A stretch of 28,830 nt of DNA from contig JARRRI010000057.1 in NCBI GenBank assembly GCA_037380845.1, forward strand, positions 1 through 28,830. Reading direction: 5' to 3'. The notes under the pieces were generated by a model. That model saw only the letters and a program-made list of their open reading frames with translations. It was not told the DNA's origin and ran no database searches. Below, one piece after another: positions 1-28,799 of this stretch (the first letter of the stretch is position 1; each line of letters starts with the position of its first letter). The translations under genes and the position numbers were made by a program. Source of the stretch: Candidatus Sulfobium sp. Its GTDB lineage: Bacteria; Nitrospirota; Thermodesulfovibrionia; Thermodesulfovibrionales; UBA6898.

Positions 1-81
1 ATTTGCTCCGGGAAGCTCCTCCACATAACCGATATAGCCGTATGGCGACTTCTGAAAGATTGCTGTTAATTTCTCCTGCAT
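1..81 (-). CDS. HicB-family (UPF0150-like) antitoxin, 5' part only, runs off the window
   Basis: Manual translation from the ATG at 81: MQEKLTAIFQKSPYGYIGYVEELPGAN..., matching the HicB N-terminal 'Y.GyVeELPGanTQG' pattern. AGGTG RBS upstream. Absent from the ORF track because it is truncated. Confidence 0.8.
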   Translation of the reverse strand, partial: MQEKLTAIFQKSPYGYIGYVEELPGAN

Positions 82-110
82 TTATATCACCTGCCTTTCC
101 TCTATATTAT

Positions 111-201
111 GCCATAACGACTTGCATCAGCAGCGGGGAATATTCATCAATGAAAAATCAAACAAGGTTATTCCCCGTCTGCTGGATGCTTTTGTTGTGT
201 G
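111..201 (-). mobile_element. Integron attC recombination site
   Basis: Minus strand reads CACACAAC-AAAA-GCATC(C)AGCAG(A)CGGGGAATA...loop...TATTCCCCG-CTGCT-GATGC-AAGTC-GTTATGG. It has AAC/GTT core triplets, an unpaired spacer and paired L boxes with two unpaired bases (G and T on the bottom strand, as in canonical attC). It lies about 20 bp after a stop codon. Confidence 0.88.
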
Positions 202-220
202 GCCGTTCATATATTCTGTT

Positions 221-583
221 TTATTTACTGCGCAGGTCAGCGACATATTGTTGCAGTTTATAATCAATAACAACTTCCTGAGCATACGGCGATTCTCTGA
301 GAGAATCTCCCAATTCGCAAAGGATGACAGCCAGATGCACACCTTCTTTAAGATTTTCTTCTACAGAATCTACAAACATTTTATGTATCTGATGTATTGC
401 ATCCTTATTCATGGAAGGCATATAAAACACTTTGATAACATTATTCCCTTGCGGCAACTGAACGCATGTAGTCAGACCTTTCAAAAGACCTTCTTTTGCC
501 GTGCTGATAACAAACTCAACATGCCCGTCACTCATGCGCGTTATGATTGTGCCGAAGGGATATCTGCCTTGCGACAATATCAT
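221..583 (-). CDS. Hypothetical cassette protein (120 aa)
   Basis: ATG at 583 has a GGAGG RBS and overlaps the stop of the upstream ORF (ATGA). The ORF ends just before attC. No family recognised. Confidence 0.65.
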   Translation of the reverse strand: MILSQGRYPFGTIITRMSDGHVEFVISTAKEGLLKGLTTCVQLPQGNNVIKVFYMPSMNKDAIHQIHKMFVDSVEENLKEGVHLAVILCELGDSLRESPYAQEVVIDYKLQQYVADLRSK

Positions 584-882
584 TTTGCCTCCTTTGGATG
601 GAGCCAACAAATATGCTCTCGATCAATCAGGACTATTTCGCCTTCCTTTAAGTCTTTTGGCGGCGCAATATTGATTGGTTCAAAGAATCTGATTTCAGCT
701 TCAAAATCATTTTCTTTTAATGCCTTTGTTATTTTTAAAAATACTGTGCTATCGCCGTATTGGGCTGAAACTTCCATGCCCGCAATCACCGGAGCATCAA
801 AACTAAGCGGCTTGGCAGTTGGCCACTTCTGGATTATTCCATGTGTTTCGCATTTGTTCCAATTTGGTCTTTTTAAGGCCAT
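580..882 (-). CDS. Hypothetical cassette protein (100 aa)
   Basis: GGAGG RBS at 891-895, ATG at 882, translationally coupled to the 221-583 ORF. No family recognised. Confidence 0.65.
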   Translation of the reverse strand: MALKRPNWNKCETHGIIQKWPTAKPLSFDAPVIAGMEVSAQYGDSTVFLKITKALKENDFEAEIRFFEPINIAPPKDLKEGEIVLIDREHICWLHPKEAK

Positions 883-1090
883 TTCAATTACCTCCGTCGA
901 AAGGATTTGTTATGCCGCTTAATATTGAATTTGATGTGACAGCGAAAGATGTTGATTGGAAGGATAAGGATTCTGTTGGTTTCATTTTAACGCCAGCAAT
1001 CGCAAGGGATATAGCCTTGCAACTTGAGAAACAAGCGCAGGAATATGATGATAATTTTCGTTTTGCCTTTTCATGTTCGTTTATATCTTG

Positions 1091-1115
1091 CACACAACTA
1101 ATTACTATGCGTATA
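1091..1115 (-). mobile_element. Putative attI site (crossover G|TTGTGTG at 1098/1097)
   Basis: TTGTGTG after the G is the exact complement of the R'' end (CACACAA) of the attC at 194-201, as expected at the start of an integrated cassette. No attC hairpin lies upstream. The site sits between the promoter/intI and the cassette. Confidence 0.6.
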
Positions 1116-1131
1116 GCCTTGAATTGCCATA

Positions 1132-1160
1132 ACAGTAACAGAGCGTTTGAGGCCTGTCAA
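1132..1160 (-). promoter_or_regulatory. Sigma70-type cassette promoter (Pc-like)
   Basis: TTGACA (1160-1155), 17-bp spacer, TACTGT (1137-1132), pointing toward the attI site and cassettes. Confidence 0.65.
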
Positions 1161-1228
1161 GATATAACTTCCCGATATATAAAAATACTTCTTGTCATAT
1201 TGTCGTAAAGTGTAGGTAATATCGAAAA

Positions 1229-1261
1229 TAACGAACTGCGTATTAACGAACTGCGTATTAA
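1229..1261 (+). repeat. Perfect 15-bp tandem repeat (TAACGAACTGCGTAT x2, then TAA)
   Basis: Directly visible, immediately before the AAGGAGG RBS of the intI remnant. Confidence 0.9.
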
Positions 1262-1279
1262 GGAGGATATCAGACAAAA

Positions 1280-1513
1280 ATGGGCCTCAAGGACACCCTG
1301 CCGGACTTTCAGGAGTTTCTCAGGGCGGGCAGGCTTGCGCCCGAAAGGAATATCCCATATCTCGCCTATTGGGCAAGCAGGTTTCTCTTCTTCATAGCTA
1401 GGAAAGACCATTCCGACACCGGCTCTCTCGTTATCGAGTTCATCGATTCTCTCAGGGGCCGGGAAGATATTGCCGACTGGCAGGTCCGCCAGGCCGAGGA
1501 GGCCCTGCTCTGA
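1280..1513 (+). pseudogene. intI: Truncated integron integrase, N-terminal extension only
   Basis: 'LPDFQEFL...PERNIPYLAYWASRFL...DWQVRQAEEAL' resembles the N-terminal extension of long IntI proteins of Desulfobacterota/Nitrospirota-like bacteria. It is divergent from the attI/attC array. No tyrosine-recombinase domain was seen downstream. Confidence 0.65.
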
Positions 1514-1848
1514 AAGCCTTCATCAGCGCAGGCTACCGCCGTTATGGAACACGCTAGTGGTCCATCTGAATACGTCTCAATCCCTGAAAACAGTGCTTCC
1601 AGATCAATCCGCCGAAAAAATGAAATCCAAAAGACGGTGGTGTGAAATTCCCGATCCGCCAGAATCAGTTTAAAAAAATTGGGAGGCTGGTGTAAAGGGA
1701 AAAGTGCTTCACAGCGCGTGACATCGCTGAGAGTCGCTACGACCGATCAAACTTAAAAGCCGAAGTGACTCCGTCCGAAATGGCAAGACCCTCGAGCTCG
1801 ATTCCGAGGTTCTTTGGGGTGGCCATGCAAGTTGTGTTCACAAAAAAA

Positions 1849-1878
1849 TGGATTCCCGATTACTACCTCGGGAATGAC
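1849..1878 (+). repeat. REP-like palindromic repeat, copy 1
   Basis: TGGATTCCCGA-TTACTACC-TCGGGAATGAC; near-identical copies at 17414 and 18845. Confidence 0.8.
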
Positions 1879-1934
1879 GACGGAAATCTCTTCTTTACGG
1901 AGTCTACATTCTAAATGAATAGCCGATGCGGTAA

Positions 1935-2147
1935 CTACTTTAAGGAGTAAATTCCCTTGAGGATCAGGAGGAGCCAGGGGATGCCGTGGAGGAAAAGGTC
2001 GAACCAGTCTATGGGTCTCACAAGCTTCCCCTTGAAGAGCATCTGGAGTTTTTCTACTATATGCGGCGGCGCAAAGGGGGCAAGCCCCAGAGTGAGGCAG
2101 ATAATGATCAGGGTGCCCCAGGATATCTTGGCAAGCACTTGTTCCAT
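1935..2147 (-). CDS. Small conserved two-TM membrane protein (70 aa)
   Basis: Two hydrophobic segments with the recurrent 'LGLAPF.PPH..EKL.ML..G.L..PIDWFDL..HG.P' pattern. Function unknown. Confidence 0.8.
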   Translation of the reverse strand: MEQVLAKISWGTLIIICLTLGLAPFAPPHIVEKLQMLFKGKLVRPIDWFDLFLHGIPWLLLILKGIYSLK

Positions 2148-2192
2148 CCGGAAATTATAACACAGGCCCGATGCCGGTATAATTTAAGCGAA

Positions 2193-3053
2193 ATGGAGAT
2201 AATACCGGGACCTGAATGGGAGACTCTCCTAAACACGACCTTGAAAGTGAAGGGCGCTGTCATGATCATGGGAACCACCGACTCCGGGAAAACAACGCTT
2301 GCGCGATACCTGATCAAGCATCTTCTTTCAGAAGGGATAAAAGTATCTCTTGTCGACACCGACGTGGGACAGACTTCTCTCGGCCTGCCCGGGACAATCA
2401 GCATGAAGGTTTTTCCCTCCCCGGAAGACCTGGAAGACTTTATGCCCGACAGGATGTTCTTTGTGGGGGTCGTAAACCCGGCAACGGCTATTCCCCTGAT
2501 AATAAGGACGGCGGGGACTGCGGTCGGGAAATGCAGGGAGAAATCGGACATTGTCCTGATGGATACGAGCGGGCTCGTCTCCGGAAGAATCGGTGAGGTG
2601 CTAAAGACGGGCAAGATCAGGGCGGTAAGGCCCGAACACATAATAGCAGTACAGAGGGAAGACGAAATCGAGCATATCCTGAAACTGGCCGGAGATATCG
2701 ATATTTCGAGAGTCGTCGCTTCTGGGACGGTGAAAAAAAGAGATACGGGGAAGCGTATACGGTACCGGGAGAAGAAGTATGAAAGTTACTTCAGAGAAGT
2801 ACAGCAGGCAGAATATCTGGTGGATTTGCGGGATACTGGCCCTTTTTACAAAGGCAGGGAGCTGAGCCCGGGACGAAGCGGTTTTCCGAAGGGGAACGTC
2901 ATAGGCCTGAACCGCGGCGACGAAACGCTTGCCCTGGGGCTTCTGACCGAAATCGGCGAAGACAGGGTAACCTTCAAATCTCCTCTTGGGTCACTGAAAG
3001 GAATAAACCGCATCGTCTTCGGAGACATCTCTTATACAGCGCCAAGCGCATAG
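2193..3053 (+). CDS. Clp1/Grc3/Nol9-family polynucleotide 5'-hydroxyl kinase
   Basis: Walker A GTTDSGKTT, DTDVGQ motif, DTSG, and basic lid 'KRDTGKRIRYRE'. Start moved to ATG 2193 because the upstream extension overlaps the divergent gene. Confidence 0.85.
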   Translation: MEIIPGPEWETLLNTTLKVKGAVMIMGTTDSGKTTLARYLIKHLLSEGIKVSLVDTDVGQTSLGLPGTISMKVFPSPEDLEDFMPDRMFFVGVVNPATAIPLIIRTAGTAVGKCREKSDIVLMDTSGLVSGRIGEVLKTGKIRAVRPEHIIAVQREDEIEHILKLAGDIDISRVVASGTVKKRDTGKRIRYREKKYESYFREVQQAEYLVDLRDTGPFYKGRELSPGRSGFPKGNVIGLNRGDETLALGLLTEIGEDRVTFKSPLGSLKGINRIVFGDISYTAPSA

Positions 3054-16467: not shown

Positions 16468-17247
16468 ATGGATGCCGGCAAGGGTAAACGGAGCATAATC
16501 GAGGATCTCAAGTCCATGTTGGAATTCTACGAGGCAATGGGGCTTGAAAAGCTGCCCATCGAACTCAGGGACCCCCCCGGTGAGGCAGGTTTTGTTCCAC
16601 CCGGAAAGGGGAAATCTTTTGTCTCATCCCGGAAGCGCGAGGCCGCCAGCAGCCGGAATTCCGGCGGACAGACTCAACAGGCTGCGGAAAAGGCGGGACT
16701 GCTGAAGGCCCTCAGGGATGAACTGGGAGATTGTGTGCGGTGCAAGCTCTCCGGGGAGAGGAAGAACATAGTCTTCGGCGATGGGAATCCGGGCGCCGCC
16801 CTGATGTTTATCGGAGAGGGTCCGGGGAGGGAGGAAGATATTCAGGGGCTGCCGTTTGTGGGAGACGCGGGCATGCTTCTTAGCAAGCTGATAGAGAAGA
16901 TGGGACTCAAGAGAAAAGATGTGTATATAGCAAATATAGTTAAGTGCCGGCCTCCAGGGAACCGCGATCCGGAAGAGGACGAAGTCGCGACGTGCCGGCA
17001 GTTTATCGATGCCCAGATAGAGATTATAAAACCCCGGGTCATCATGACCCTGGGCAGGATAGCCCTTCAGACCCTGCTCGAAAATCCGCGGCTGAAGATA
17101 TCCGCCGCGAGGGGGAACTTCACTGATTACCGCGGCATCCCGGTTATGCCGACCTTTCACCCTGCCTACCTGCTGCGTAACCCGAGGGACAAATGGCTCA
17201 CCTGGGCCGACGCGCAGAAGGTAATGGAAAGACTGCATATCGGCTGA
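16468..17247 (+). CDS. Uracil-DNA glycosylase, family 4
   Basis: Fe-S cysteines (CVRC, KCRPP..RDP, C), IGEGPG, PFVG.AG, TFHPAYLLR. Confidence 0.93.
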   Translation: MDAGKGKRSIIEDLKSMLEFYEAMGLEKLPIELRDPPGEAGFVPPGKGKSFVSSRKREAASSRNSGGQTQQAAEKAGLLKALRDELGDCVRCKLSGERKNIVFGDGNPGAALMFIGEGPGREEDIQGLPFVGDAGMLLSKLIEKMGLKRKDVYIANIVKCRPPGNRDPEEDEVATCRQFIDAQIEIIKPRVIMTLGRIALQTLLENPRLKISAARGNFTDYRGIPVMPTFHPAYLLRNPRDKWLTWADAQKVMERLHIG

Positions 17248-17413
17248 AGCGGAAATTTTACCTGATCTCGCAGAAACGCGGAAGGAACGCCGAAAAAGTC
17301 TTGTAATAGGGAAGAGATGTGACCTTCTTTGGATAACGCTCCCGCCTCCGGCACCCCCCTCTTAAGATAAGTCGAAGCGACCTTCGCGGGTATCCAGGTT
17401 CTCCTAAGAAAAA

Positions 17414-17443
17414 TGGATTATCGACTATTACCTCGGGAATGAC
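17414..17443 (+). repeat. REP-like palindromic repeat, copy 2 (degenerate)
   Basis: TGGATTATCGACTATTACCTCGGGAATGAC. Confidence 0.75.
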
Positions 17444-17489
17444 GGCCCATAAGCATTTTCGGGGAGCAATGTTAGTGCCTACCCGCTGG

Positions 17490-18797
17490 TCAGTCTTCCT
17501 CCGGTACCGGGCTGCGGGATGTGGCCAATATAATGCCCTGTCCGGGACTCAGGTCGTATGAAAAAGGAGACGGCACATCTTCCAGCCGGTTTTCAGGAGA
17601 GATGTCAGTAAGGGGGGTCCCGGTTTGAAAGTATGTCTGAAGGTCGTCGGCATGAAAACGCTGGCTGTTATGGATGTCCTTGTTCAGGATCAGGAGGGAT
17701 TCCTCCTGTGTGTGGCTCGAAGCCTTCCACATCAGCAGCACGTTGCTGTTATCGTAGTGAGGTAATTCCGTGGATGCGTCCTCCTGAAAGATAATGTGGC
17801 CGCTCTTGATCCCGTTGACCGTCTTTATATAATCGGTGAGATCGATGTCCGTCTCCTCCCAGTCTTCCGGCCTCGTCTTTACTACGTGCGGCCTTTTCCG
17901 GAAACCGAACTCGAAGCCCATGGGCATCATCAGTCCTCCCGAAAAGAGGGCAGCGAAGAGATAGCGTTGTTTGAGCCCCTCCACGTTGCCGTTGAGCTCC
18001 TCGCAAAGCCTTACGGTATCGTGGCTTTCCGGGAAACTTATAGACGGGACGATATCACGTGTCAGGGCATACTGTTTCATCAGCCAGGGGCTCCTGAAGT
18101 CCCACCATTTCGAGCTGTTGAATATATAATCGAACCCCGCACGGGCTGTTTTTATTGTAAGGTCCGGCGGACAGCCCAGGGTCTCGGCAAAAAAGAGGAT
18201 GTCGGGATGCTTTTCCCTCGTCTCATGGATCAGCCTTTCCCAGAGGCTTCGGGGCAACTGGTAGGCGGCATCGCAGCGGAAACCCGAGAAGCCGAGTTCT
18301 ACAAGGGAAGTCACAACCCTGAAGCAGAAGCCGTAAAGCCCTTCCTTGTCCCGCGTATTCCTGTGGTCGAACTTTGCCAGGTCCTTCCAGACCACCTTTT
18401 TACCGTTTTCGTCTGCGAAGGGATGGGCAACTCTGCCTTTACCTTCCCATTCAAACCATTCCGGATGTTCCTTAAGGAGGGCGGAGTCGGTGCTGCAGTG
18501 GTTAATGACCAGATCGACCATGACCCTGAGACCCATCTTTTCCGCGGACGCTATCGCTGCCTTGACCTGTTCCCGCGGCGGAGAGGAACTTTCATTGTCT
18601 ACAAGCAGAGGATTAAAGTTGAAATAATCGGCTATGGAGTAGATGCTCCCGGATTTTCCGGTTGCCTGTATGGGATTGACGAAGACCCAGTTGAAGCCCA
18701 TTTCGGCGGCCCTCGACAAGTGGCGCTCCCAGTCTGAAAAATTTCCGGCAAGCAGCGGGAAGAGATTGTAGATTATCATTTTTTCTGGTGGTCTCAT
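17490..18797 (-). CDS. GH13 alpha-amylase-family protein (GlgE-like catalytic domain)
   Basis: GH13 regions DLVINH, GFRCDAAY (nucleophile Asp), FAETLG (acid/base Glu) and ESHD. 'GSIYSI.D' and 'HPEWF' resemble GlgE. AAGGAG RBS. Confidence 0.88.
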   Translation of the reverse strand: MRPPEKMIIYNLFPLLAGNFSDWERHLSRAAEMGFNWVFVNPIQATGKSGSIYSIADYFNFNPLLVDNESSSPPREQVKAAIASAEKMGLRVMVDLVINHCSTDSALLKEHPEWFEWEGKGRVAHPFADENGKKVVWKDLAKFDHRNTRDKEGLYGFCFRVVTSLVELGFSGFRCDAAYQLPRSLWERLIHETREKHPDILFFAETLGCPPDLTIKTARAGFDYIFNSSKWWDFRSPWLMKQYALTRDIVPSISFPESHDTVRLCEELNGNVEGLKQRYLFAALFSGGLMMPMGFEFGFRKRPHVVKTRPEDWEETDIDLTDYIKTVNGIKSGHIIFQEDASTELPHYDNSNVLLMWKASSHTQEESLLILNKDIHNSQRFHADDLQTYFQTGTPLTDISPENRLEDVPSPFSYDLSPGQGIILATSRSPVPEED

Positions 18798-18844
18798 GTC
18801 TTCTCCTTTAGTAACTTACAGTCCAGCCAATCTGTATGAAAACC

Positions 18845-18874
18845 TGGATTCCCGACTACTACCTCGGGAATGAT
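18845..18874 (+). repeat. REP-like palindromic repeat, copy 3
   Basis: TGGATTCCCGACTACTACCTCGGGAATGAT. Confidence 0.8.
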
Positions 18875-18931
18875 TTTTTTCAACTTTAAGATTAACTTAT
18901 CAGGATTCTTTTCGTCAGCATAGAAGAAAAT

Positions 18932-20011
18932 TTATTCGCCCTTTCTACGCAAATAAAATTGTCTGCACGCCTCATCAACCAGCTTTTTATTCTGAGCGAG
19001 TACGGCGAGCCAGTAGTTCATTCTTTCGGCGTTTGTCCTGTCCCGCCAGTGATCAAATAAAAAGGCTGCGTCCTCAAGCGGAGTCCTGCCTTCGCCGGGA
19101 TGTATTTCAAGTGAGAAGGATATCTGATCCGGAGGCAGGATTTCAAGAGACTGCCTGACGATCGATGAAAGGCCCGAAAGGCCGTACATGAGGTCCAGAG
19201 ATCCCTTGTCCCTGAATTGAAAGGGGAGGGGTACGGTTTCCAGAAAGCTCATGTGGTCCGATACGCCGAAGACACTGGAGGATGAAAGGGGATGGCCGTC
19301 ATGGAGGTGGAAATGGAGCGGCTTTCCCAGTGTCCCCAGTTCCCTGACGACACGAAGGGTTTCGGGCAGCGCCGCCTCGACGGCGTAAGAGATGTCTTCC
19401 ATAAGACCCTTCAAACCTGGATCATCAGTCCTTATCTCGCAGACGTCCCTGCCGGCATGCATTTCTGAAAATATTTTGCGAATCTTCCATATCCCCACGT
19501 GACCGGTATCTATGCAGGCGCTGACATTCTTAAGTCCGCGTATACGGCTAAAGAGATTGATGAATACTTCAGTATCCAGCCCGGATGCGTATTCTATAAA
19601 CAGGTAAACCCCGTCCCCGCCCCGGACCATGGAGTCCAGTTCCCTCAGGGCGTCTGTATAATCGTCCGTCCGGTTCACTGCTTCCGCCTGATCATGAACG
19701 ACGAGACCGTAAATTCGGCCTGCCGCTTTCCCGGCGAAGTGGGCTATAGTCTCGCGTCCGGCCTGGTCCATGACATCAAGACCGCGCTGGAGATGTACGG
19801 CTGCGGGCGCTTCCGGGTAAGGTCTGAACTGCAGCAGATACTCGAGTTCCGCAGGCGTCTCCGCATAAAGCTCGGTCCCAATCTGTGCCTGACTGAAGCG
19901 CAGCCTTGCCAGATTCATAAGGGCATCGTCACCGTCCACCCTCTTTTGAAAAAGAGCAAGAATGCGCGGGCAGGAAGCTGTCCTGCCCTGTTTGCCTGCG
20001 GCCCGGTTCAC
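18932..20011 (-). CDS. Xylose-isomerase/AP-endonuclease-2-like TIM-barrel protein
   Basis: Candidate metal-ligand motifs FIEY, CIDTGH, HFHLHDGH, SDH and SLEIH. GTG start overlaps the PWD stop. Confidence 0.72.
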   Translation of the reverse strand: MNRAAGKQGRTASCPRILALFQKRVDGDDALMNLARLRFSQAQIGTELYAETPAELEYLLQFRPYPEAPAAVHLQRGLDVMDQAGRETIAHFAGKAAGRIYGLVVHDQAEAVNRTDDYTDALRELDSMVRGGDGVYLFIEYASGLDTEVFINLFSRIRGLKNVSACIDTGHVGIWKIRKIFSEMHAGRDVCEIRTDDPGLKGLMEDISYAVEAALPETLRVVRELGTLGKPLHFHLHDGHPLSSSSVFGVSDHMSFLETVPLPFQFRDKGSLDLMYGLSGLSSIVRQSLEILPPDQISFSLEIHPGEGRTPLEDAAFLFDHWRDRTNAERMNYWLAVLAQNKKLVDEACRQFYLRRKGE

Positions 20012-23000
20012 GGTATCCCCTGCTGGGGCCTTGACTGGACCAGACAGATCTCTTCTCCGGAGATTATGCCTTCGATGTCCTGCGGCTTTCCGAGACGTTC
20101 CTCCACGTACACAGCAATATTCGTGAGTCTTTTCCCCATGTCTTTTCTGAATTTTTCATCCGTCGAAAACCTGGTCCGGGAATAATCCATTACTTCCCTT
20201 GTTATTCCCCCATCGGGGCCGGGCAGGAAGGCCTGGCTGAAGCTCGCAAAGGAGAGCATCCGTGCTCCGGCTGCATGCCTGCTGCACACCATGCGGTAGG
20301 GTGTTCCCGGCAGTCTGCCGGAAGCGAGGACCTCGCCCAGTCCTGCTGCCAGTTCGATATACACCTCATCGCGCTCCCCTGTGACGGGGTTAACGGTGTG
20401 GATGATAAAGGCATAGTCAGGCACCCTCATCTCCTGAACCAGCACTGCCATATGGGCATCTCCGTGAGGGACCCCGAGCTGTGCCCTGTTCATTACGGCC
20501 CTCTTCGTCCAGAGGGAAGCCCAGACAGACCTGACCGCGTCACCAATCCCTTCTGCCGAAACATTTGCGACACTCTCGTAAAGACCGGCCCCCGACAGAC
20601 CTTCCAGATCTTCGCAGTTGGAGCTGGACCTTACCATCAATCTCTTCCCGGGTCCGAACGTTTTTCCCACGGCCGGTAGTAATCCATCAGGTGTTTTCGT
20701 GACCGCCATTATCTTCCTCATCCGGGCCAGTATGTCGTCCGTCTCTGCCGCCCCGGCATTGTCCAGTCTCCCGATAAGAGATCGGTATTCTCTTCCGAGT
20801 TCAGGGCTCTTCTTCAGGCACTCTTCCATCACGCCGAAAGGTATTGCCGCACTCTTCGGAGTCGTGAAACCCGCCCCGGAGCCACTGGACAGCTCCAGAA
20901 GCCTTCTGGCTCCGAAGGCCTTTCCACCGCAGCTTTCAAGTGTAATGCCGTCTCTTTCGAGAAGTCCCTTTCCGCCGGGAGTCTCAACGGCGGGAAGTTC
21001 TACATGAGCGGCAGGAGACCGCCTCTTCGCATCATTTGTCCGGCCCCCCGAAACAGTGTATCGGACGTTTTCACCCCGGGCGTCAAAGGTTATGGTCTTT
21101 CCCTTGAGGTCCCGGAGGCCGGAAAAGACTTCTTCGTCCTCGCAGCCTGCAAATACCACTCCGGCCTGCCTGGCTCGCACCGCCAGGTGGGAGAGGTGGG
21201 GTGTCTCGTGGGGCACTACTATTGCGGCAACCACTGCCGGTATTTCCTCATCTCCCTCGACTTTTTCAAGGAGGGCGATAACAGACCGGTCACGGGCCCG
21301 GGACAGGCCGGAGAGACCCGGGGCGGGCCTCAGCCTGCCGGAAACTTTTCCCGGCACGATCACGTCCCAGGGGGGGAGGGCCGCCCTTTGCCTGACAACC
21401 TTCAGCAGGAAGCCGGCAAGCTTCGAGAGCTGGAAGACCGGATGGCCCCGTATCTCCGATTCGGTGAATACCCTTACCGCCCGCTGATCGACGCCCAGCG
21501 CATGACCGAGTCTTTCGGCCCTTTCCGGAAAGAGGGACATTACTGTCTGCGTGTAGGCTTCGGAAAGCCTCAGGCTCCTGTCCACAGTCGCCTTGAGTCT
21601 GAGAAGCCGGTATCGGCTGCTGTCGTCGAATCCCTGTCGCCACGCCTCGAGTTCGGACACGATTGCCCGGCATTCCTCACGGTCGAACCCGCCGATCCGC
21701 AGATTTTCCACTGTCAGTCCCAGGCAGCGAAGGGCGCGCTCCCACGGGACCGCCTTATGAGATCTTAAGTCGCCGAAAATCCTGCTTACGAGGACAAAGG
21801 AGAAATCCTCCATGCCGGTATCGGCCGCCGTCAATTGCTGGGCCTCGGAGTCGTCCCTGCCCCGGCGGCGAACGGCGAAGAGTTCGCGGAGGCGGGTGAG
21901 AAGTTCGAATGCCTCCGTCAGGCCTTCGGAATCTTTCGCCGATGCCTTTGCGTCAAGGAAGCGGTGTATGATGCCGGCCTCCTCTTCGCCTGAAATCCGC
22001 GCGACTGCTTCAAGCTGCTCATCGAGGGACCGGGCGTTAAAGAACTCTTTCAGCTCTTCATGGAATTTCCTGAACTCCCCGATGAAGGAAGAGGGGTAGT
22101 CGGCGCCGGGAGATGTGATTCTCTCCAGGAGGCGGGATGAAGTCTCAAGGTCCTCCGGCCCGGCATTACGATGGAGCTTGTTCTGAAGGGTAGCCTTGAT
22201 CTCCCGCTTCAGCTCCTGGGGGATATCATTTCTGTGGGCGATGTCACGTATCCGCGTCAGGGGCTCGGCCCGGAGGAAGTCGCTGTCGAAGGAGGGTAGC
22301 CAGGGGTAGATCTTTCTGATGATAAAGGAGTTTTCCGGTGTCTCCATCCTGGCGAGGCGACCGAATATGTCTTTTGCCATCCGGGCATGATGGGAAGGCC
22401 GGTAGTGGCTGCCGTCTTCCGTGACCTTTACCTGACCGGTGCCCAGAAAACGAAGATAAATCGCCAGGTAGACAAGCTGCTCCCTGGTGAGGTCCGGCGC
22501 ACCGTTCGAAAAGAGATCGTGCACCCAACTGAGCTTTTCCCGCCAGCTCTTCCGTTTCCTGTCCGCGAGGGCGATGACGCGCGCAAAATCGCCTCCGGGT
22601 ATTTCCGGCTTCGGCGCCGCGGTCGCTTTGGGAGAAACGCCGATTATGGACAGGAGCCTGTTTCTCGCCTCATCGATCAGCCGGGGAGGGTCGGGCCATT
22701 GTTCAAGGATGAGGGAACCGGAGAATCTTCTCTTCTTCAGCCGGTCGATCAACCCTCTTATGCCGGAATCGTCCTTTGCGGACGGCCCCGTAAAAAGAGG
22801 AAGGTGTCTGTCGGAGTCGCCGTAATTTTCATGGAGATGAGCATGGATGATCGGCAGGTCCCCGTCGAGGAGATCAATATACCGGAGGTAATCATTGCGG
22901 GTAGCCCGGCAGATGTTGGCATGCCCCAGGTCGAGGCACATTCCGGCGGAGGGTTTTCCCCCGGTGTCATGCCCCAGAAGACGGAAGAGTTCGTTGAAAT

Positions 23001-23445
23001 CATCCGGCGTGGTCTCGGTCGTATTCTCTATCGAGAGGCTAATCCCTTTATCGGAAAGTTCATTAATGACCGGACGGACCGCTTCGGCGAAGGCCGCGGC
23101 CCCTTTTTCCTTATAGAAGTGTATGTTCATGACCACGGCCCCGATGTCACGGGCGAGACTCAACGCACGCTCCATTTCGACTTCCGACCCCTGCGTGAAG
23201 GGGCTCCATCGCCACGGGACGTGAACGGACAAACGGATGTCGTGTGCGGCAGCCGTATCTTTTATATAGACGCGCGTTTCTTCCCCGAGGTCCCCTTCAG
23301 ACCAGCCTTCTCCGCTTTCTTTCCTGTCCGGAAACCACTCGAAGGCGTCGAACCCGTTCGCTACGGCGTATTCGAAGGGCTCCGTGATGCTTCCGGCAAA
23401 CCAGGCGGTCTGGTTGCCTATTCTGAAGCCCTTTTTCTCACCCAT
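20008..23445 (-). CDS. Phosphoglucan, water dikinase (PWD/GWD3)-like protein with N-terminal TIM barrel
   Basis: PWD signatures AIYLRFLGTGQ...EDGSHYRPSHHA and PLTRIRDIAHRNDIPQELKREIKATLQNKLHRNAGPEDL; phospho-His motif PHLSHLAVRARQ; nucleotide-binding VRSSSNCEDLEGLSGAGLYES...PQDIEG...VQSRPQ. Confidence 0.9.
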   Translation of the reverse strand: MGEKKGFRIGNQTAWFAGSITEPFEYAVANGFDAFEWFPDRKESGEGWSEGDLGEETRVYIKDTAAAHDIRLSVHVPWRWSPFTQGSEVEMERALSLARDIGAVVMNIHFYKEKGAAAFAEAVRPVINELSDKGISLSIENTTETTPDDFNELFRLLGHDTGGKPSAGMCLDLGHANICRATRNDYLRYIDLLDGDLPIIHAHLHENYGDSDRHLPLFTGPSAKDDSGIRGLIDRLKKRRFSGSLILEQWPDPPRLIDEARNRLLSIIGVSPKATAAPKPEIPGGDFARVIALADRKRKSWREKLSWVHDLFSNGAPDLTREQLVYLAIYLRFLGTGQVKVTEDGSHYRPSHHARMAKDIFGRLARMETPENSFIIRKIYPWLPSFDSDFLRAEPLTRIRDIAHRNDIPQELKREIKATLQNKLHRNAGPEDLETSSRLLERITSPGADYPSSFIGEFRKFHEELKEFFNARSLDEQLEAVARISGEEEAGIIHRFLDAKASAKDSEGLTEAFELLTRLRELFAVRRRGRDDSEAQQLTAADTGMEDFSFVLVSRIFGDLRSHKAVPWERALRCLGLTVENLRIGGFDREECRAIVSELEAWRQGFDDSSRYRLLRLKATVDRSLRLSEAYTQTVMSLFPERAERLGHALGVDQRAVRVFTESEIRGHPVFQLSKLAGFLLKVVRQRAALPPWDVIVPGKVSGRLRPAPGLSGLSRARDRSVIALLEKVEGDEEIPAVVAAIVVPHETPHLSHLAVRARQAGVVFAGCEDEEVFSGLRDLKGKTITFDARGENVRYTVSGGRTNDAKRRSPAAHVELPAVETPGGKGLLERDGITLESCGGKAFGARRLLELSSGSGAGFTTPKSAAIPFGVMEECLKKSPELGREYRSLIGRLDNAGAAETDDILARMRKIMAVTKTPDGLLPAVGKTFGPGKRLMVRSSSNCEDLEGLSGAGLYESVANVSAEGIGDAVRSVWASLWTKRAVMNRAQLGVPHGDAHMAVLVQEMRVPDYAFIIHTVNPVTGERDEVYIELAAGLGEVLASGRLPGTPYRMVCSRHAAGARMLSFASFSQAFLPGPDGGITREVMDYSRTRFSTDEKFRKDMGKRLTNIAVYVEERLGKPQDIEGIISGEEICLVQSRPQQGIP

Positions 23446-26400
23446 GTTCGACGCCCACCTGCGGCCGGGCCTGAACGACGTGGAATTTTCCTCCGGAGAA
23501 CGCCCCCTCTATGTCCTGGGGAGCTCCAAGCGCCTTCTCAATGACTTCGCCTATTTCGGCGACGCCGGTCATGAAGCCCCGGCGGAAGTCCGTATCCCAG
23601 ACCATCTTTTCGTCGCTATAATCCAGGACGACACGCCTGGGTTCGGGCAGCATGAAGCTGTCGTAAAGGCCGGCCCCCGCATACCCCTCGATGTCTTCTC
23701 CGTTGGAGTCGGAGCGAAAGGTAAGACCGCCTCCGAAGAGACCGATACTCTTGCCGGGATAAGAGAGAAGTCTCGGCGCCTTGTCTCCCTTGCCCCGCAG
23801 GAAGCTTAGGGCCTTCCCCGGGTAATTCCCGACGAGCGCCTCGCCCAGGCCCAGTACTGCTTCAGCATAGACTTCATCACGGTTTCCGGTGAAGGGATTG
23901 ACGGTATGTATGACATAACTGTAATCCGCCTCGACTATCCTCTGAATGAGCACTGCCATGTAAAGGTCCTCATGGGCAATCCCTCTGGCAATGCGGCTGA
24001 GGTAAGCCCTCCTGTTCCATTTAGATGCCCAGACTTTCTTGATGCAGGTCCACGCCTCATCCCAGTTTTCAGGCCAGGGAAGGCCCGTCCCGGTCATAAC
24101 CTCTTTCAGGGCCGCCGCGAGTTCCCCGGGAGATTCAAGATCGAGGATGGTCTCCCGGAGGCTCCCGAGGACCGCTTCGTCGCTATGCCCGTCGTTCTCT
24201 CCAAGCCTGCCGATGAGTTCCCTGCATCGCCTCGAAACGTCCTCATTCTCCCTCATCCCGAGGACCTTTTCGAAAATTCCGAAAGGAATCGCTACCGAGG
24301 CCGGAAGGTATACCCAGTCGGGCACCTTGCCGTGCATCTTTTTGATGTTGTTTGATTTCCCTCCTACAATATCCGCGGTGAAGTCCCCCATCGAAACCGC
24401 GTATTTCGAGAAAGACGGAGCGCGCGGACGGGCCTGGGCAGACCTTTTCGGCGGAGTCTCTCTTTCTTCCCGGGCAGAACCCCGCTCGAACAGTACTTCC
24501 CCGGATGCATTTATTCTGAGAGTGACGGGATTCCCCCCGAGTCTTTTCAATTCGTCAAGCTTCTCAGCGCTGTAGCATACCGCAAAGAGAACGCCGGAGT
24601 TCCTGGCCCTGATTGCCACATGTGCCAGGACGTCCGTCGGATCGGGTGTGACAAGCGCCGAGACACCCTCAGGGATTTCTTCATCTCCCGCCACCTTGTC
24701 CGAAACAATGACGGTTTTCCTTTCGAAGCGTCTGCCCTGGACGGATTTCAGCGAATCGGTCAATTCAACATATCCTCCGGCTTGCCCCGGGCTGATTATC
24801 TGCCAGTCTCCCAGTTCCGCCGCCTTTCTGAGAACCGGGTTTATTTTCTGCAGGAGCATCGAAAGGGCAAAGGCCGGAGTACCGCGTACGACCTCCTCGC
24901 TGAACAGATTGAATGTCCACTCGTCGGCCCGGAAAGCCTTGCCCATAAATTCCGCCTTCGGCTGAAGGAGGCCGTAACAGCGGTCGATAAAGGAACCGAC
25001 GCCCCGGTGAATCCTGTCGATGACGGAATCCGCGTGGAGCGCCCAGTCTCTGGAGAAGCGTTCCGTCGACGCCAGGCGCTTCCAGTGGCGGAGACAGGCC
25101 CTCAGCTCCGCGTTGTCAGCCGAGATGTCCAAGATTTCGAGCATGACTTCTATCGAGTCAGCCAGTTCGTCCCGTCCCAGGCCCTCGGCGAGGTTCCGCT
25201 CCACGACAACACGGGAGTAATCCTCCAGCGCAATGTCCAGGAAGAGAAGGTCCCTTATCCTGTCCGCATGTCCCTTCATCAATCCCCTGATGCGCCTTCG
25301 GCCCTCGACTATCTTCCGGATCAACGGAACCGGCTTCCTGTCATCCCTGTGACGCCATATATGGTCCATCAGCCCGTGCATATCAGGGTCGAAGAGATAC
25401 CTCGCAGAGTGGATGGCCGTTCCCAGGTCGGTGCCGGAATGGACCTCCTTCAGAATACCCAGAAAATGTTCGAAGTCCCCTATCAGGGCGTCCTTAAGGT
25501 GGGGAACAAAGTCAGGATGCGATACGATGGGCCGTTCGTAGCTTTCGAGACGGTCTGTGGAAAGCCCTCCTTCCTCAAGTTTATCGTAGAACCTGTCGAG
25601 GCTTCCGTTGCTCTTCAGGAAAGCGATGAAGGCCTCGCAGATTACTATATCGTCCGGGGTGGCGTTATTGTGGAGCTTCTGGTGCCATTCCTCCATGAAA
25701 TGGCCGGACACTTCCTTGATATGATGGCGGTGCATGATGTTCAGCACTTCGTCCCGCACACGCTGCGCATCGCTACCCCTCCCCAGTGTCCTGAGGATAA
25801 GCCTGATCATTTCCCGGTCTCCGGGTTCGGCGTCATATAGTCCTGCCAGTTTGAGTGTCAGTCTGTCCAGGGCGTGGCCCAGTTCCCGGGGCTTGGTATT
25901 ATAATTGCGCTGCCAGTCGAGCTGCCTGATCGACGAAAAACGCAGCCAGACGAAGATCAGGGCGAGGCCGCCGGTGTTATTCCTCACCCTGTCCAGAAGG
26001 TCATAACAGAGGTTGAAGCGGTGCATCAGTGTCCAGGAGTTGCGCCCCATCTCATGTTCGATAATCTCCTCTGCGATGTCAGACAGTTCCGGACTTCCAA
26101 GTCCTTCCATGCCAGCCGAAATGGTGAGGGGTATGTAAAAATTCCTGTCGCCGTCCTTTATCCATCTGCCGGTGTCCGGTCGGTAAAGGACAAAAGATAT
26201 ACCCGAAGGCGCATCCCCGGATGCGATTCTCAGGGTGAGGCGCAGGAGGCCGTCTTCTTCGGCGAAGGGGGTGCGGACGGCTTTCCTGTCGAAGACCTCG
26301 CTGTTTGCAGGCCGCATCGCCTTCGGCGGCATTTCCCACTCAAACCGCGAACGGACCGAAACGCCCCAATGAAGGAAAAGCGGGCCTTCCAGGTCCGCAG

Positions 26401-26917
26401 CCAGACCTGCGAAGTAATTTTCCCCGTCCTTCCAGACCGCAACCGCCAGTTCAGGGCCGTTTTCCAGCCGATACCGGCGCTTATGAAGGACTTCTTCATC
26501 CGGAAGCTCCCTTTCGAGGGCCTCCCCGGGGAGAGGAGAAGTCCTCTCCGCAGGAGGGAGGTCGATCCGGTAATTTCGTCCTCCGTTATTGTCCCACCTG
26601 TCCTCATCGGGAAAGAAAAGCACAAAGTCTATTGCGAAGAGTTCCGGGGAGCGGCCTATGGTGATAAATATCCCTCTTTTTCCGTCGTGTGCCATAAAAG
26701 GAGTCTGAACGGCCCCGTCAAGGGCCGTGGTTCCCTCCGGCCAGACCGACCGCGGGGGAGCCGTCCAGCTGCCGCGTCCCTTTAGTTGCATCCCCCAGTG
26801 GAGAATGCAGTTCTTTTCGCTCTCGATCCGTATGTCTATCCTTACGGCGGTTTCGGTTGCCGACTTGTCCACAGACAGAACTATGTCTTGTTTGCTTACG
26901 AGCGTTTCCATGGGCAT
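23438..26917 (-). CDS. Alpha-glucan, water dikinase (GWD1/SEX1)-like protein with tandem CBM45-like modules
   Basis: LMHRFN, WLRF...RQLDWQRNYNTKPRE, QRVRDEVL, MEEWHQKLHNNATPDDIVICEA, VHSGTDL; phospho-His DVLAHVAIRARN; KVWASKWNRRAY, FRSDSNGEDIEGYAGAGLYDS, QDIEG, VQARPQ. Start is 26917 or 26911. Confidence 0.92.
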   Translation of the reverse strand: MPMETLVSKQDIVLSVDKSATETAVRIDIRIESEKNCILHWGMQLKGRGSWTAPPRSVWPEGTTALDGAVQTPFMAHDGKRGIFITIGRSPELFAIDFVLFFPDEDRWDNNGGRNYRIDLPPAERTSPLPGEALERELPDEEVLHKRRYRLENGPELAVAVWKDGENYFAGLAADLEGPLFLHWGVSVRSRFEWEMPPKAMRPANSEVFDRKAVRTPFAEEDGLLRLTLRIASGDAPSGISFVLYRPDTGRWIKDGDRNFYIPLTISAGMEGLGSPELSDIAEEIIEHEMGRNSWTLMHRFNLCYDLLDRVRNNTGGLALIFVWLRFSSIRQLDWQRNYNTKPRELGHALDRLTLKLAGLYDAEPGDREMIRLILRTLGRGSDAQRVRDEVLNIMHRHHIKEVSGHFMEEWHQKLHNNATPDDIVICEAFIAFLKSNGSLDRFYDKLEEGGLSTDRLESYERPIVSHPDFVPHLKDALIGDFEHFLGILKEVHSGTDLGTAIHSARYLFDPDMHGLMDHIWRHRDDRKPVPLIRKIVEGRRRIRGLMKGHADRIRDLLFLDIALEDYSRVVVERNLAEGLGRDELADSIEVMLEILDISADNAELRACLRHWKRLASTERFSRDWALHADSVIDRIHRGVGSFIDRCYGLLQPKAEFMGKAFRADEWTFNLFSEEVVRGTPAFALSMLLQKINPVLRKAAELGDWQIISPGQAGGYVELTDSLKSVQGRRFERKTVIVSDKVAGDEEIPEGVSALVTPDPTDVLAHVAIRARNSGVLFAVCYSAEKLDELKRLGGNPVTLRINASGEVLFERGSAREERETPPKRSAQARPRAPSFSKYAVSMGDFTADIVGGKSNNIKKMHGKVPDWVYLPASVAIPFGIFEKVLGMRENEDVSRRCRELIGRLGENDGHSDEAVLGSLRETILDLESPGELAAALKEVMTGTGLPWPENWDEAWTCIKKVWASKWNRRAYLSRIARGIAHEDLYMAVLIQRIVEADYSYVIHTVNPFTGNRDEVYAEAVLGLGEALVGNYPGKALSFLRGKGDKAPRLLSYPGKSIGLFGGGLTFRSDSNGEDIEGYAGAGLYDSFMLPEPRRVVLDYSDEKMVWDTDFRRGFMTGVAEIGEVIEKALGAPQDIEGAFSGGKFHVVQARPQVGVEHG

Positions 26918-27024
26918 AGAGAGGCCCTGCCTTTCGCAGTCATAAATGGGGATGGGAAGGTATTAAACACCCTTCCCTTCATCTCCTCCGTCAAGAGAGA
27001 GGAAATTCAGAACATTCCGACTGA

Positions 27025-27050
27025 ATCTGTTAACTAATATGTTATCAGAT
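27025..27050. promoter_or_regulatory. Imperfect palindrome, candidate operator overlapping a putative extended -10 for the GWD cluster
   Basis: ATCTGTTAAC-TAATAT-GTTATCAGAT, arms 9/10 complementary. The minus strand contains TG-A-TAACAT. Confidence 0.4.
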
Positions 27051-27178
27051 TTTTGCTTTATCGCCATGAAGAGGGCGGGCTGTTTCTGCGACGGCTCCAT
27101 CTTCCCGCTTTTTTCTTTCAATATGCCCGTCTTTTTTTATAAAATAATAAAAAATATAAATAGGCGGAGGTAATAAAA

Positions 27179-27436
27179 ATGGGAGAGGACATAGAAGTAG
27201 TTTCCGTTGATAAGTCGATCAATATCAAGGGCTTGGTATGCCCTTATACTTTTGTGAAGGCGAAACTTGCCATAGAATCCATGGAAGTCGGACAGGTTCT
27301 GGAGATCCTGCTGGACTATGAGGAGGCGTCCAGAAGCATTCCCAAATCGATGGAGGACCACGGGCAGAAGGTCCTCAGGGTCGAAAAGATAAATGACACG
27401 GACTGGAAACTTTTGATCAGAAAGGACAGGGAATAG
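27179..27436 (+). CDS. TusA/SirA-family sulfur carrier
   Basis: 'GLVCPY..VKAKLAI..ME.GQVLEILLD' with the CP motif. GGAGGT RBS. Confidence 0.9.
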   Translation: MGEDIEVVSVDKSINIKGLVCPYTFVKAKLAIESMEVGQVLEILLDYEEASRSIPKSMEDHGQKVLRVEKINDTDWKLLIRKDRE

Positions 27437-28239
27437 TGGATTTTACCGACGAGCAGGTCCTGCGGTACAGCAGGCACATCATACTTCCTGAGGTGGGGGG
27501 CAAGGGACAGGCCAGGATAGCGGAGGCGAAGGTCTTTATTATAGGCGCCGGGGGGTTGGGCTGCCCTGTAGGTTATTATCTTACCGCTGCCGGCGTGGGT
27601 ACGATAGCCATGATCGACAATGACACTGTCGAGATCAGCAACCTTCAGAGACAGATTGCTCACAGCATGGATACCATCGGGATGCCTAAGGTTGAGTCTG
27701 CAAAAAAGACTTTTGAGGCCCTTAACCCCGATGTTAACATTGTGGCTCTGAAGAAGAGAATATCGAAGGACGATATCCTCGGCCTGATCAGTGATTATGA
27801 TATAGTTGTGGACGGCAGTGATAATTTTCCGACGAGATATCTTGTCAACGATGCCTGCGTCATGGCGAAGAAACCGCTTGTGAGCGGGGCGATCCTTAGG
27901 TTCGAGGGGCAGGTGACGACGATAATGCCCGGTGAGGGTCCGTGTTACAGGTGCCTCTTCGAGGAACCGCCTCCCCCGGGGCTGGTGCCGTCCTGTCAGG
28001 AGGCGGGCGTCCTTGGAGTTCTGCCGGGGGTAATCGGCGGCCTGCAGGCGACCGAGGTCCTGAAACTCATCCTGGGGAAGGGAGACATCCTCAAGGGTGA
28101 GTTGCTGATATACAACGCCCTGAAGACAACGTTCAGGAAAGTAAAAGTGCCGAAGAACCCTTCTTGTCCGTTATGCGGAGAACATCCCGCCATTACGGAG
28201 CTGATAGATTACAACGATGGCTATTGCACGATGCAGTAG
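27436..28239 (+). CDS. moeB: MoeB/ThiF-family (E1-like) adenylyltransferase, no rhodanese domain
   Basis: RYSRHIIL, IGAGGLG, SNLQRQ, DGSDNFPTRYLVND, CYRC, SCQEAGVLG, CPLC. Confidence 0.9.
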   Translation: MDFTDEQVLRYSRHIILPEVGGKGQARIAEAKVFIIGAGGLGCPVGYYLTAAGVGTIAMIDNDTVEISNLQRQIAHSMDTIGMPKVESAKKTFEALNPDVNIVALKKRISKDDILGLISDYDIVVDGSDNFPTRYLVNDACVMAKKPLVSGAILRFEGQVTTIMPGEGPCYRCLFEEPPPPGLVPSCQEAGVLGVLPGVIGGLQATEVLKLILGKGDILKGELLIYNALKTTFRKVKVPKNPSCPLCGEHPAITELIDYNDGYCTMQ

Positions 28240-28385
28240 CTTGCAAAGGGCTGCGAACGGGGGCACGGTACAGGCAACACCGGGTTAAGCCGGAGCTCGG
28301 GCGACCGGCCGGAGTACCGGTCTATCCTGCTGTTGCCGCATGCGGCTTTCCGTTTGCGGCTTCTTTATGTGGCTATACGATATAA

Positions 28386-28799
28386 ATGTCGTCATTGATT
28401 ATTCCACGGACCATTTTCGACAGAATCATCTCCCACTGCGTCTCGGTCTATCCGGACGAGGCTTGCGGGATATTGGCCGGGGAAAAGGACACAGTCCGAA
28501 AGATTTACGAAATGACAAATTCCGAACCGTCGCCTGTAAGTTATTTCATGGACCCGAAGGAACAGTTTCTGGCCATGAAAGAGATGAGAAGGAGAGGACT
28601 GCATATGATGGCTGTTTACCATTCGCATCCGTCTTCACCCCCTTATCCTTCGGCGAAAGACGTGAGCCTCGCCTCTTATCCTGATTCGCTCTACATCATC
28701 GTGGGTCTTTCCGATAAGGACAGACCAGAAGTGCATGCATATACGATTGTCGAGGGGAAGGTAAGCGAAGCGGAGATGGAAGTCCTCCCCGGATCTTAA
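28386..28799 (+). CDS. M67/JAB (JAMM) metallopeptidase, Mec-like
   Basis: PDEACGIL (catalytic Glu) and YHSHP..PPYPSAKD (HxH...D Zn motif). Confidence 0.92.
   Translation: MSSLIIPRTIFDRIISHCVSVYPDEACGILAGEKDTVRKIYEMTNSEPSPVSYFMDPKEQFLAMKEMRRRGLHMMAVYHSHPSSPPYPSAKDVSLASYPDSLYIIVGLSDKDRPEVHAYTIVEGKVSEAEMEVLPGS

Follow-up and report, generated by a model that had tools for sequence, protein, structure and literature searches.

The stretch of DNA analysed here (the window) comprises 28,830 nucleotides of contig JARRRI010000057.1 (assembly GCA_037380845.1) from Candidatus Sulfobium sp., a member of the Nitrospirota, and carries on its minus strand a gene, GWD_A (P0001), whose product is homologous to plant alpha-glucan, water dikinases (GWD). 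GWD_A heads a four-gene minus-strand operon (GWD_A, GWD_B, TIMlike_C and GH13_D), in which the start of GWD_B overlaps the stop of GWD_A by 8 nt, the start of TIMlike_C overlaps the stop of GWD_B by 4 nt, and GH13_D follows TIMlike_C after a gap of 134 nt (Table 1). At the level of sequence, GWD_A belongs to a known enzyme family, of which it is a compact bacterial representative encoded in a conserved operon. Its product is very likely an alpha-glucan, water dikinase of the GWD type that acts in the cytoplasm of a Nitrospirota bacterium; it would work by a plant-like mechanism and probably on the storage glucan of its own cell. The domains, motifs, conservation and synteny described below were observed directly. 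The host is a marsh bacterium, and its assembly (3.18 Mb in 104 contigs) is rated 100% complete and 1.82% contaminated.

Table 1. Features of the GWD_A operon, with positions in the window; aa, amino-acid residues of the encoded protein.
Feature	Position	Strand	Description
GWD_A (P0001)	23438..26917	minus	1159-aa alpha-glucan, water dikinase homologue; from open frame, Pfam and cotton GWD1 alignment
CBM45-type module 1	26558..26902	minus	aa 6-120; HWG 40-42, W51, W108; PF23166
CBM45-type module 2	26126..26479	minus	aa 147-264; HWG 183-185, W194, W252; PF23166
Central (glucan-side) helical domain	24818..26116	minus	aa 268-700, with E674, E675, R678; phmmer against PDB
Phosphohistidine (swivel) domain	24488..24805	minus	aa 705-810; PF22973 112.4 bits, E 1.2e-32
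Catalytic His766 codon CAT	24620..24622	minus	motif DVLAHVAIRARN; column invariant in 51/51 rows
C-terminal ATP-grasp nucleotide-binding domain	23441..24400	minus	about aa 840-1159; PF01326 100.1 bits
GWD_B (P0002)	20008..23445	minus	metal TIM barrel (aa 24-262) and CBM-less GWD-type dikinase; PF01261 80.2, PF22973 89.8, PF01326 130.5 bits
TIMlike_C	18932..20011	minus	359 aa; possible distant relative of GWD_B TIM barrel; PF01261 E 3.1e-4, under cut-off
GH13_D	17490..18797	minus	435 aa, catalytic-domain-only GH13; PF14701 E 5.2e-25, PF00128 E 4.5e-11

The frame of GWD_A is uninterrupted over 1159 codons. In a Pfam scan its translation was matched, in this order, by PF23166 in two stretches, by PF22973, the phosphohistidine-like domain of GWD1, and by PF01326, an AMP/ATP-binding domain of PPDK type, the last running to the C-terminus, and the same scan found no phosphoenolpyruvate (PEP)/pyruvate-binding domain in GWD_A. 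A first-pass annotation, made from the letters of this DNA and a list of its open frames, had described a histidine domain placed before a C-terminal ATP-binding domain, and both this order and the terminal domain itself are borne out by the Pfam matches. It had also named a GWD middle domain, and aa 268-700 do match 9ha9_A (E 2.5e-87) and 9qvi_A (E 1.1e-86) in a phmmer search of the PDB; these entries, titled 'Alpha-glucan water dikinase, chloroplastic', are crystal structures of the central domain of potato StGWD1. The catalytic His766 that it had proposed was found where expected, with its codon CAT read at 24622..24620 within DVLAHVAIRARN, through which GWD_A conforms to the motif of the family, (D)(V/I/L)(L/V)(S/A)H..(V/I)RARN. 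His766, Arg770 and Arg772 are invariant in 51/51 rows of an alignment that contains bacterial, eukaryotic and paralogous (GWD_B-type) sequences, and the phosphohistidine domain was recovered again, at 24485-24805, by a family search of the whole genome. By BLASTP, GWD_A is 40% identical to cotton GWD1 (P0151) over 1091 aligned positions (query 118-1154 vs 403-1471); this alignment is free of gaps over query 619-798, and the ATP-grasp domain of GWD_A aligns to the C-terminal end of the cotton protein without large gaps. For StGWD1, the available part of PMC13553574 gives five folded domains (CBM45_1, CBM45_2, a central domain at 483-926, a His domain at 931-1050 with H992, and an ATP-binding domain), the candidate transfer residues E900, E901 and R904, and the conserved V989 and L990. 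When this numbering is mapped by a constant offset of 226 (H992 to H766), which follows sequence alignment and not structure, E674, E675 and R678 of GWD_A align with the three candidate transfer residues (central helix ..lfseevvrg.. vs ..ifteeiira..), and V763 and L764 with V989 and L990. The GWD_A translation has no signal-like N-terminal sequence and no transit peptide, and the protein is therefore probably cytoplasmic. The observation of the first-pass annotation is confirmed, all coordinates that were checked being right, and its proposal that this is a GWD-type, glucan-binding dikinase is supported, in that it agrees with every sequence-level test that was run.

The two N-terminal repeats reported by the first-pass annotation, and the motif strings quoted for them, are present in the translation. 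Alignment of aa 38-120 with aa 181-264 gives a BLOSUM62 local score of 153, against a mean of 28.2 (standard deviation 4.6) and a maximum of 54 in 200 shuffles. Scanned alone, repeat 1 scores 81.5 bits (E 7.2e-23) and repeat 2 scores 88.9 bits (E 3.7e-25) against PF23166, each nearly end to end and above the cut-off of 27 bits, and the description of the repeats as CBM45-like holds on this measure; membership of this carbohydrate-binding module family was judged with the Pfam model, 'alpha-glucan water dikinase 1 Ig-like N-terminal domain', which spans CBM45 regions, and not with the CAZy/dbCAN CBM45 profile. PF23166 also matches the CBM45 regions of cotton GWD1, with which module 1 shares 30% identity (aa 11-121 vs 104-215, BLASTP). 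In 24/24 bacterial two-module homologues the residues H40, W41, G42, W51 and W108 of the first module and H183, W184, G185, W194 and W252 of the second are invariant, and across the 51-row alignment a tryptophan stands in the W41, W108, W184 and W252 columns in 43, 36, 43 and 50 rows, respectively. The tryptophan of 'HWG' is named as a carbohydrate-binding residue of CBM45 in the part of PMC12458248 that is accessible, and a starch-binding role of the conserved CBM45 tryptophans is given there and in the accessible part of PMC13553574. An AlphaFold2 (AF2) model of aa 1-275, built from a 24-row alignment, consists of two all-beta modules (mean predicted local distance difference test score (pLDDT) 86.8, predicted TM-score (pTM) 0.55). 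Foldseek matched this tandem model only to generic Fab/Ig two-domain chains (TM ≤ 0.34), its top match being Arabidopsis ISA2 9xvi_C (E 6.2e-5, TMq 0.34), and as such it says nothing finer than 'beta-sandwich'. No solved CBM45 structure was matched in the Foldseek and PDB sequence searches; PMC12458248, as far as its available text goes, states that there is no structural information for the family. We predict that both modules of GWD_A bind alpha-glucan. Among 68 whole GWD_A frames, HW[GA] motifs occur twice in 25, once in 42 and not at all in 1 (3 further frames, cut at the 5' end, stand outside this count), and the tandem form is thus a minority among the nearest bacterial relatives, even in loci titled Sulfobium.

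Relatives of GWD_A are numerous. A word-indexed protein search scored 7999 candidates and returned 1353 proteins at E ≤ 1e-10, and an exhaustive search of 50%-identity representatives returned 6675 at E ≤ 1e-3, 1634 at E ≤ 1e-10 and 560 at E ≤ 1e-30. These relatives are often annotated as 'alpha-glucan, water dikinase' by JGI, and as 'PEP/pyruvate-binding domain-containing protein' or 'hypothetical' by NCBI. When one genome of each prokaryotic species was scanned, 128 of the 141 pattern matches proved to encode a relative, and the best 80 were retained; the titles of their records mention Nitrospirota, Thermodesulfobacteriota/Deltaproteobacteria, Candidatus Scalindua, Verrucomicrobiota, Chloroflexota, Terriglobia and others. 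GWD_A is intact in 72/80 related loci reaching the 3' end. The closest named relative locus, at 77% identity, is titled Candidatus Sulfobium sp., and a 78%-identical copy is found in a genome rated as belonging to the same genus. Within the order, 13/41 genomes (its own included) have a match with an E value reported as 0, and 7 further genomes have only weak ATP-grasp matches. GWD_A recurs in contigs from two runs of another study (X9 and X10), which contain 74% and 70% of the sampled words and show a few substitutions and no insertions or deletions; no RNA runs are listed among the holders of 17490-26917. Two loci are titled as archaea ('archaeon isolate', L018, and 'Promethearchaeota archaeon', L087), on short contigs (4.4 and 4.2 kb) whose names give a very low coverage, and mis-binning seems a more likely explanation for them than an archaeal GWD.

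The surroundings of GWD_A are conserved among these kin loci. A TIM domain follows GWD_A on the same strand in 52/62 loci in which a complete GWD_A has 900 nt or more of sequence downstream, and lies within 150 nt of it in 50 of those 52. Where at least 6.5 kb are available downstream (n=47), a TIM domain is present in 41 loci, a second dikinase in 26, TIMlike_C in 26 and GH13_D in 34, with none of these in 4; TIM barrel and second dikinase are fused in 21 of the 47. In L030, L031, L041, L044, L051 and others, TIM barrel and dikinase were seen fused, as separate genes, or with the TIM barrel alone beside GWD_A, so that the fusion is one among several natural arrangements. In one locus (L085) a GH13 gene was seen upstream of GWD_A.

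GWD_B keeps the catalytic histidine motif, and its ATP-grasp domain is intact. The AF2 model of its TIM domain is confident (pLDDT 91.6, pTM 0.91), and H75, H109, E140, D172, H175, H201, H203, H205, E206, D210, D212, H214 and E248 are invariant in 35/35 homologues of this domain. The best match of the TIM profile in the PDB is MJ1311 (3wqo, 3.1e-12), followed by endonuclease IV of M. tuberculosis (5zhz, 1e-4), the AP endonuclease of African swine fever virus (ASFV; 4.7e-3) and endonuclease IV of E. coli (0.033). H75, H109, E140, D172, H175, one histidine of H201-H205, D212 and H214 sit on conserved His/Glu/Asp of 5zhz, 6khy and 1qtw, and the invariant residues presumably fit the trinuclear-metal site of endonuclease IV, for which we take nine ligands to be the full set. 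E248 falls outside the endonuclease IV alignments and pairs with a glutamate only in the alignment with MJ1311, and as such would be at most a candidate ninth metal ligand. In a Foldseek search with the TIM model, ketose and L-xylulose-5-phosphate 3-epimerases rank as high as the AP endonucleases, and on the epimerase side the matches include 3wqo and UlaE (3cqj). TIMlike_C aligns with the TIM profile in hhalign with a probability of 66% (E 5.6e-5) over 62 columns that span E, D and H positions, which points weakly to kinship with the barrel of GWD_B; no solved structure matched TIMlike_C under E 0.99. Among solved sequences, GH13_D comes closest to an alpha-amylase (3dhu, 3.6e-17) and to a maltosyltransferase, GlgE (5cgm, 2.8e-16).

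The host makes alpha-glucan, since its genome has two GT5 glycogen synthases and the branching enzyme GlgB (906 bits), together with five matches to GH57 and two genes of phosphorylase type. We infer the catalysis, the substrate, the phosphorylated position and every partner role, and take the mechanism from plant GWD1. On this model, the C-terminal ATP-grasp domain would bind ATP, and His766 on the swivelling domain would take up the beta-phosphate while the gamma-phosphate is passed to water. The His domain would then swing to the central helical domain, facing E674, E675 and R678. With an alpha-1,4-glucan bound by both CBM45-type modules, one of its glucosyl hydroxyls would receive the phosphate. 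The glucan that the cell itself stores is the likely substrate, and the reaction probably serves to open up chain regions that are ordered or dissolve poorly, so that they can be broken down. The second dikinase, GWD_B, may add more phosphate, the metal TIM barrels are candidates for enzymes that remove it, and GH13_D may cut or transfer chains.

For the phylogeny, 30 representatives were labelled by cluster look-up, sequences under 950 aa having been excluded beforehand. The eukaryotes among them include Gossypium, Nymphaea, Picocystis, Mesostigma, Cymbomonas, Volvox, Cyanidium, Gloeochaete, Cryptomonas, Rhodomonas, Diacronema, Stentor, Vitrella and Chromera, and the named bacteria include Nitrospirae, Auribacterota and Margulisiibacteriota sequences. 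A FastTree tree of 121 rows and an IQ-TREE tree under LG+C20 with posterior mean site frequencies (PMSF; 51 rows, 1142 columns) were both rooted on GWD_B, the 51 rows having been chosen to cover each FastTree clade. One main bacterial clade (Shimodaira-Hasegawa (SH)-like support 100 in FastTree, 98 in IQ-TREE) holds the window gene and every named bacterial GWD_A except those of Auribacterota and Margulisiibacteriota, which branch first, on long branches flagged by the tool. Together with four or five eukaryotic clades this main clade forms an unresolved polytomy, and it lies inside no sampled eukaryotic group. In approximately unbiased (AU) tests, run under LG+G4 on 940 columns and so sharing the weaknesses of a simpler model than PMSF, neither a single clade of the 23 eukaryotic rows (p-AU 0.579, likelihood 5.05 above the free search) nor a single clade of all 23 bacterial rows (p-AU 0.502) was rejected. 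We conclude that the bacterial family was not acquired recently from any of the plant or algal groups sampled; the trees are compatible with an old transfer in either direction.

Among the explanations that would set the bacterial family in another light, the weightiest is that one old transfer carried a eukaryotic GWD into bacteria, where it then spread between phyla, bacteria not being the source of the eukaryotic enzyme. The legend of a tree in PMC6260743 (2018), to the extent that this source is available, says that some bacteria could have obtained GWD by lateral gene transfer; the polytomy of the main bacterial clade with the eukaryotic clades and the AU result for a single bacterial clade would also suit such an event. 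Against it, monophyly of the eukaryotes was likewise not rejected, the GWD_B-rooted tree has Auribacterota and Margulisiibacteriota branching first (with the long branches noted above), and the operon is bacterial, as is the paralogue GWD_B. We regard this history as a serious possibility, a little short of evenly balanced. As eukaryotes supply the family's best-known members, the mis-binning or mis-assembly of algal or plant DNA into a bacterial genome has also to be considered; on the present data this is refuted by the open reading frame, the neighbours, the spread and the tree, and we give it practically no credence. The reading frame is single and uninterrupted and overlaps its neighbour by 8 nt, and the same contig carries, on its plus strand, hypF, hypD, hypE, pdxJ, acpS, an NAD(P)H-hydrate repair enzyme, NAD kinase and UDG, genes by which the contig is bacterial. 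A relative is encoded in 128 of the 141 pattern-matched stretches of prokaryotic genome records, the E-reported-as-0 matches recur in 13 of 41 related genomes, and the main bacterial clade stands apart from every eukaryotic clade (SH-like approximate likelihood ratio test (SH-aLRT) 98).

The function itself could be otherwise in two ways. The same dikinase chemistry might serve another substrate, such as imported maltodextrins or another polysaccharide, with the operon devoted to salvage or modification and not to a cycle of phosphorylation, degradation and dephosphorylation. The resemblance of the TIM barrel to sugar and sugar-phosphate epimerases (3wqo, UlaE 3cqj), the proximity of GH13_D to enzymes of the GlgE type, whose substrate is a phosphorylated sugar, and the ordinary GlgB of the genome would fit such a role, yet the CBM45-type modules and a central domain like that of plant GWD1 (40% identity) indicate an alpha-1,4-glucan polymer, GWD_A has no signal sequence, and the four-gene cluster contains no transporter gene. 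We consider this improbable, and still more so that GWD_A has lost catalysis and persists as a glucan-binding regulatory or scaffolding pseudo-enzyme. That last idea can draw on Ala765, which directly precedes the catalytic histidine in place of serine and is found in only 7/51 rows; however, eukaryotic rows (Cryptomonas, Stentor and Chromera) also have alanine there, His766, R770 and R772 are invariant, and the ATP-grasp domain aligns to the end of cotton GWD1. For the reading we prefer, a GWD-type dikinase acting on the storage glucan of the host, several points have to be set on the other side of the balance. Neither a dual-specificity (DSP-type) phosphatase (0 matches) nor a beta-amylase was found in this genome, which is rated complete, and the plant phosphorylation cycle is therefore not simply transferable. 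Because the branching enzyme is normal, an insoluble starch-like product cannot be argued for, no such substrate is implied, and the need for a GWD on soluble glycogen is not obvious. The synteny counts overstate independence, since they come from loci that are kin and that were picked for their similarity. No study or biochemistry of a bacterial GWD was found in the full-text literature, a search with subscription-only papers and bioRxiv supplements outside its reach, and in which the one mention met with was the figure legend in PMC6260743. The partner roles are subject to a similar caution. We offer as a hypothesis that the TIM barrels are phosphate-removing enzymes, a role favoured only by the tight linkage of the barrels to the dikinases and by the lack of matches to DSP-type phosphatase and beta-amylase in a genome rated complete; a phosphatase role is all the same a guess, because the structural matches are as much ketose 3-epimerase-like as endonuclease IV-like.

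Elsewhere in the window, a hairpin with an 8-bp stem (ATTCCCGA...TCGGGAAT), followed by a plus-strand T-run, lies at 18848-18871 between TIMlike_C and GH13_D. The summed depth of metagenome contigs in this bin is about 5x that of its flanks (87.7 vs about 16 in X1), many metagenome contigs end or diverge at it, and it looks like a short dispersed repeat common to other places or organisms. Promoter-like sites (5 vs 3.6 +/- 1.7 expected) and terminator-like sites (14 vs 11.8 +/- 3.7 expected) in 17000-27500 are at chance level, and no RNA genes were found in the window by Rfam (0 matches) or ARAGORN (0 genes). Divergent from GWD_A, the plus strand carries genes for a small TusA-like protein (27179-27436) and an E1-like enzyme of ThiF/MoeB type (27436-28239), as well as an open reading frame with a JAMM-like HSHPSS motif (28386-28799), and from their translations the stretch 27179-28799 looks like a sulfur-carrier or ubiquitin-like activation module. 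The TusA-like and ThiF/MoeB-type genes are syntenic only in Sulfobium-like loci (L013, L014, L015 and L053). At 1986-3053, also on the plus strand, is a gene for a 355-aa protein with a CLP1 P-loop polynucleotide kinase domain (PF16575, E 5.8e-33), of a eukaryotic or archaeal type in a bacterium. The first 1900 nt of the window (1-1900) have a G+C content of 0.41-0.47, against 0.52-0.61 elsewhere, contain only short, overlapping open frames of non-coding appearance and have no tRNA or Rfam match; this end of the contig may be non-coding or degraded.

The location of GWD_A in a bacterial operon, which the first-pass annotation did not mention, is the main point of interest. Papers on starch and glycogen, in the parts available, treat GWD as a mark of starch-storing eukaryotes, and the available text of a 2026 review (PMC13666283) suggests that prokaryotic glycogen may lack phosphate esters, laforin being absent. 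The present sequences suggest that some bacteria phosphorylate their storage glucan. A gene of this kind in an operon conserved across several bacterial phyla makes testable whether bacteria phosphorylate storage glucan, what removes the phosphate from it, and where starch phosphorylation came from. A far-reaching answer would be that the glucan phosphorylation cycle is bacterial too and is run by a widespread operon, with GWD_A and GWD_B adding phosphate and the metal-dependent TIM barrels, as a new class of glucan phosphatase, removing it in the place of the cysteine-based SEX4, LSF2 and laforin, and that GWD and CBM45 are of bacterial origin and were passed by gene transfer to the ancestor of the eukaryotes that store starch. 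We hold this to be unlikely as a whole, though worth stating, as reversible glucan phosphorylation would then not be a eukaryotic invention. Of more immediate use, the central domain of plant GWD is the only one crystallised so far according to the available part of PMC13553574, and GWD_A may suit full-length structural work better than the plant enzyme because it is compact and has no long flexible linker.

Compared with known systems, the barrel of GWD_B has in common with the xylose-isomerase-like barrels of the endonuclease IV and MJ1311 type a modelled TIM fold with aligned His, Glu and Asp; its fusion with a dikinase sets it apart from them. An analogue of GWD_B is phosphoglucan, water dikinase (PWD; GWD3, EC 2.7.9.5), in that GWD_B is a second GWD-type dikinase without CBM45, encoded beside the first; where PWD has a CBM20, GWD_B has a metal TIM barrel. 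The N-terminal modules of GWD_A resemble the CBM45 modules of GWD1 and of the plastidial alpha-amylase AMY3 as modules of about 115 residues, all-beta in the AF2 model, with the HWG tryptophan and a second tryptophan, in two N-terminal copies. They are bacterial, in contrast to the plant modules, and the family is treated as confined to plant GWD1 and AMY3 in the available part of PMC12458248, from which spacings of 192 +/- 5 for AMY3 and 326 +/- 22 for angiosperm GWD1 can be set against the shorter 143 aa (W41 to W184) of GWD_A. With plant GWD1 (GWD1 / R1 / SEX1, EC 2.7.9.4), GWD_A shares the order CBM45, CBM45, central, His and ATP-grasp, the catalytic His motif, the V/L before the histidine, the EE..R of the central helix and the tryptophans of the CBMs. 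It has 1159 aa, against 1471 in the plant enzyme, and has no transit peptide, which the plant enzyme has. The long inter-CBM linker of plant GWD1 is missing: PF23229 (DUF7067), whose repeats lie between the two CBMs in cotton GWD1, Nymphaea GWD2 and Picocystis GWD, is absent from GWD_A at E ≤ 0.1. In plant GWD1 the cysteine pair C1003/C1007 of the CFATC motif is a redox switch. GWD_A has Leu777 and Cys781 at these positions, keeping only the second cysteine, and because leucine replaces the first the plant-type disulfide cannot form. The 'full GWD1 architecture' claimed in the first-pass annotation therefore stands for all five folded domains of StGWD1, and fails for the inter-CBM linker with its two DUF7067 repeats and for the redox cysteine pair, features that are typical of plant GWD1 and not definitional. 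Unlike plant GWD1, GWD_A is found in a bacterial operon together with TIM-barrel enzymes.

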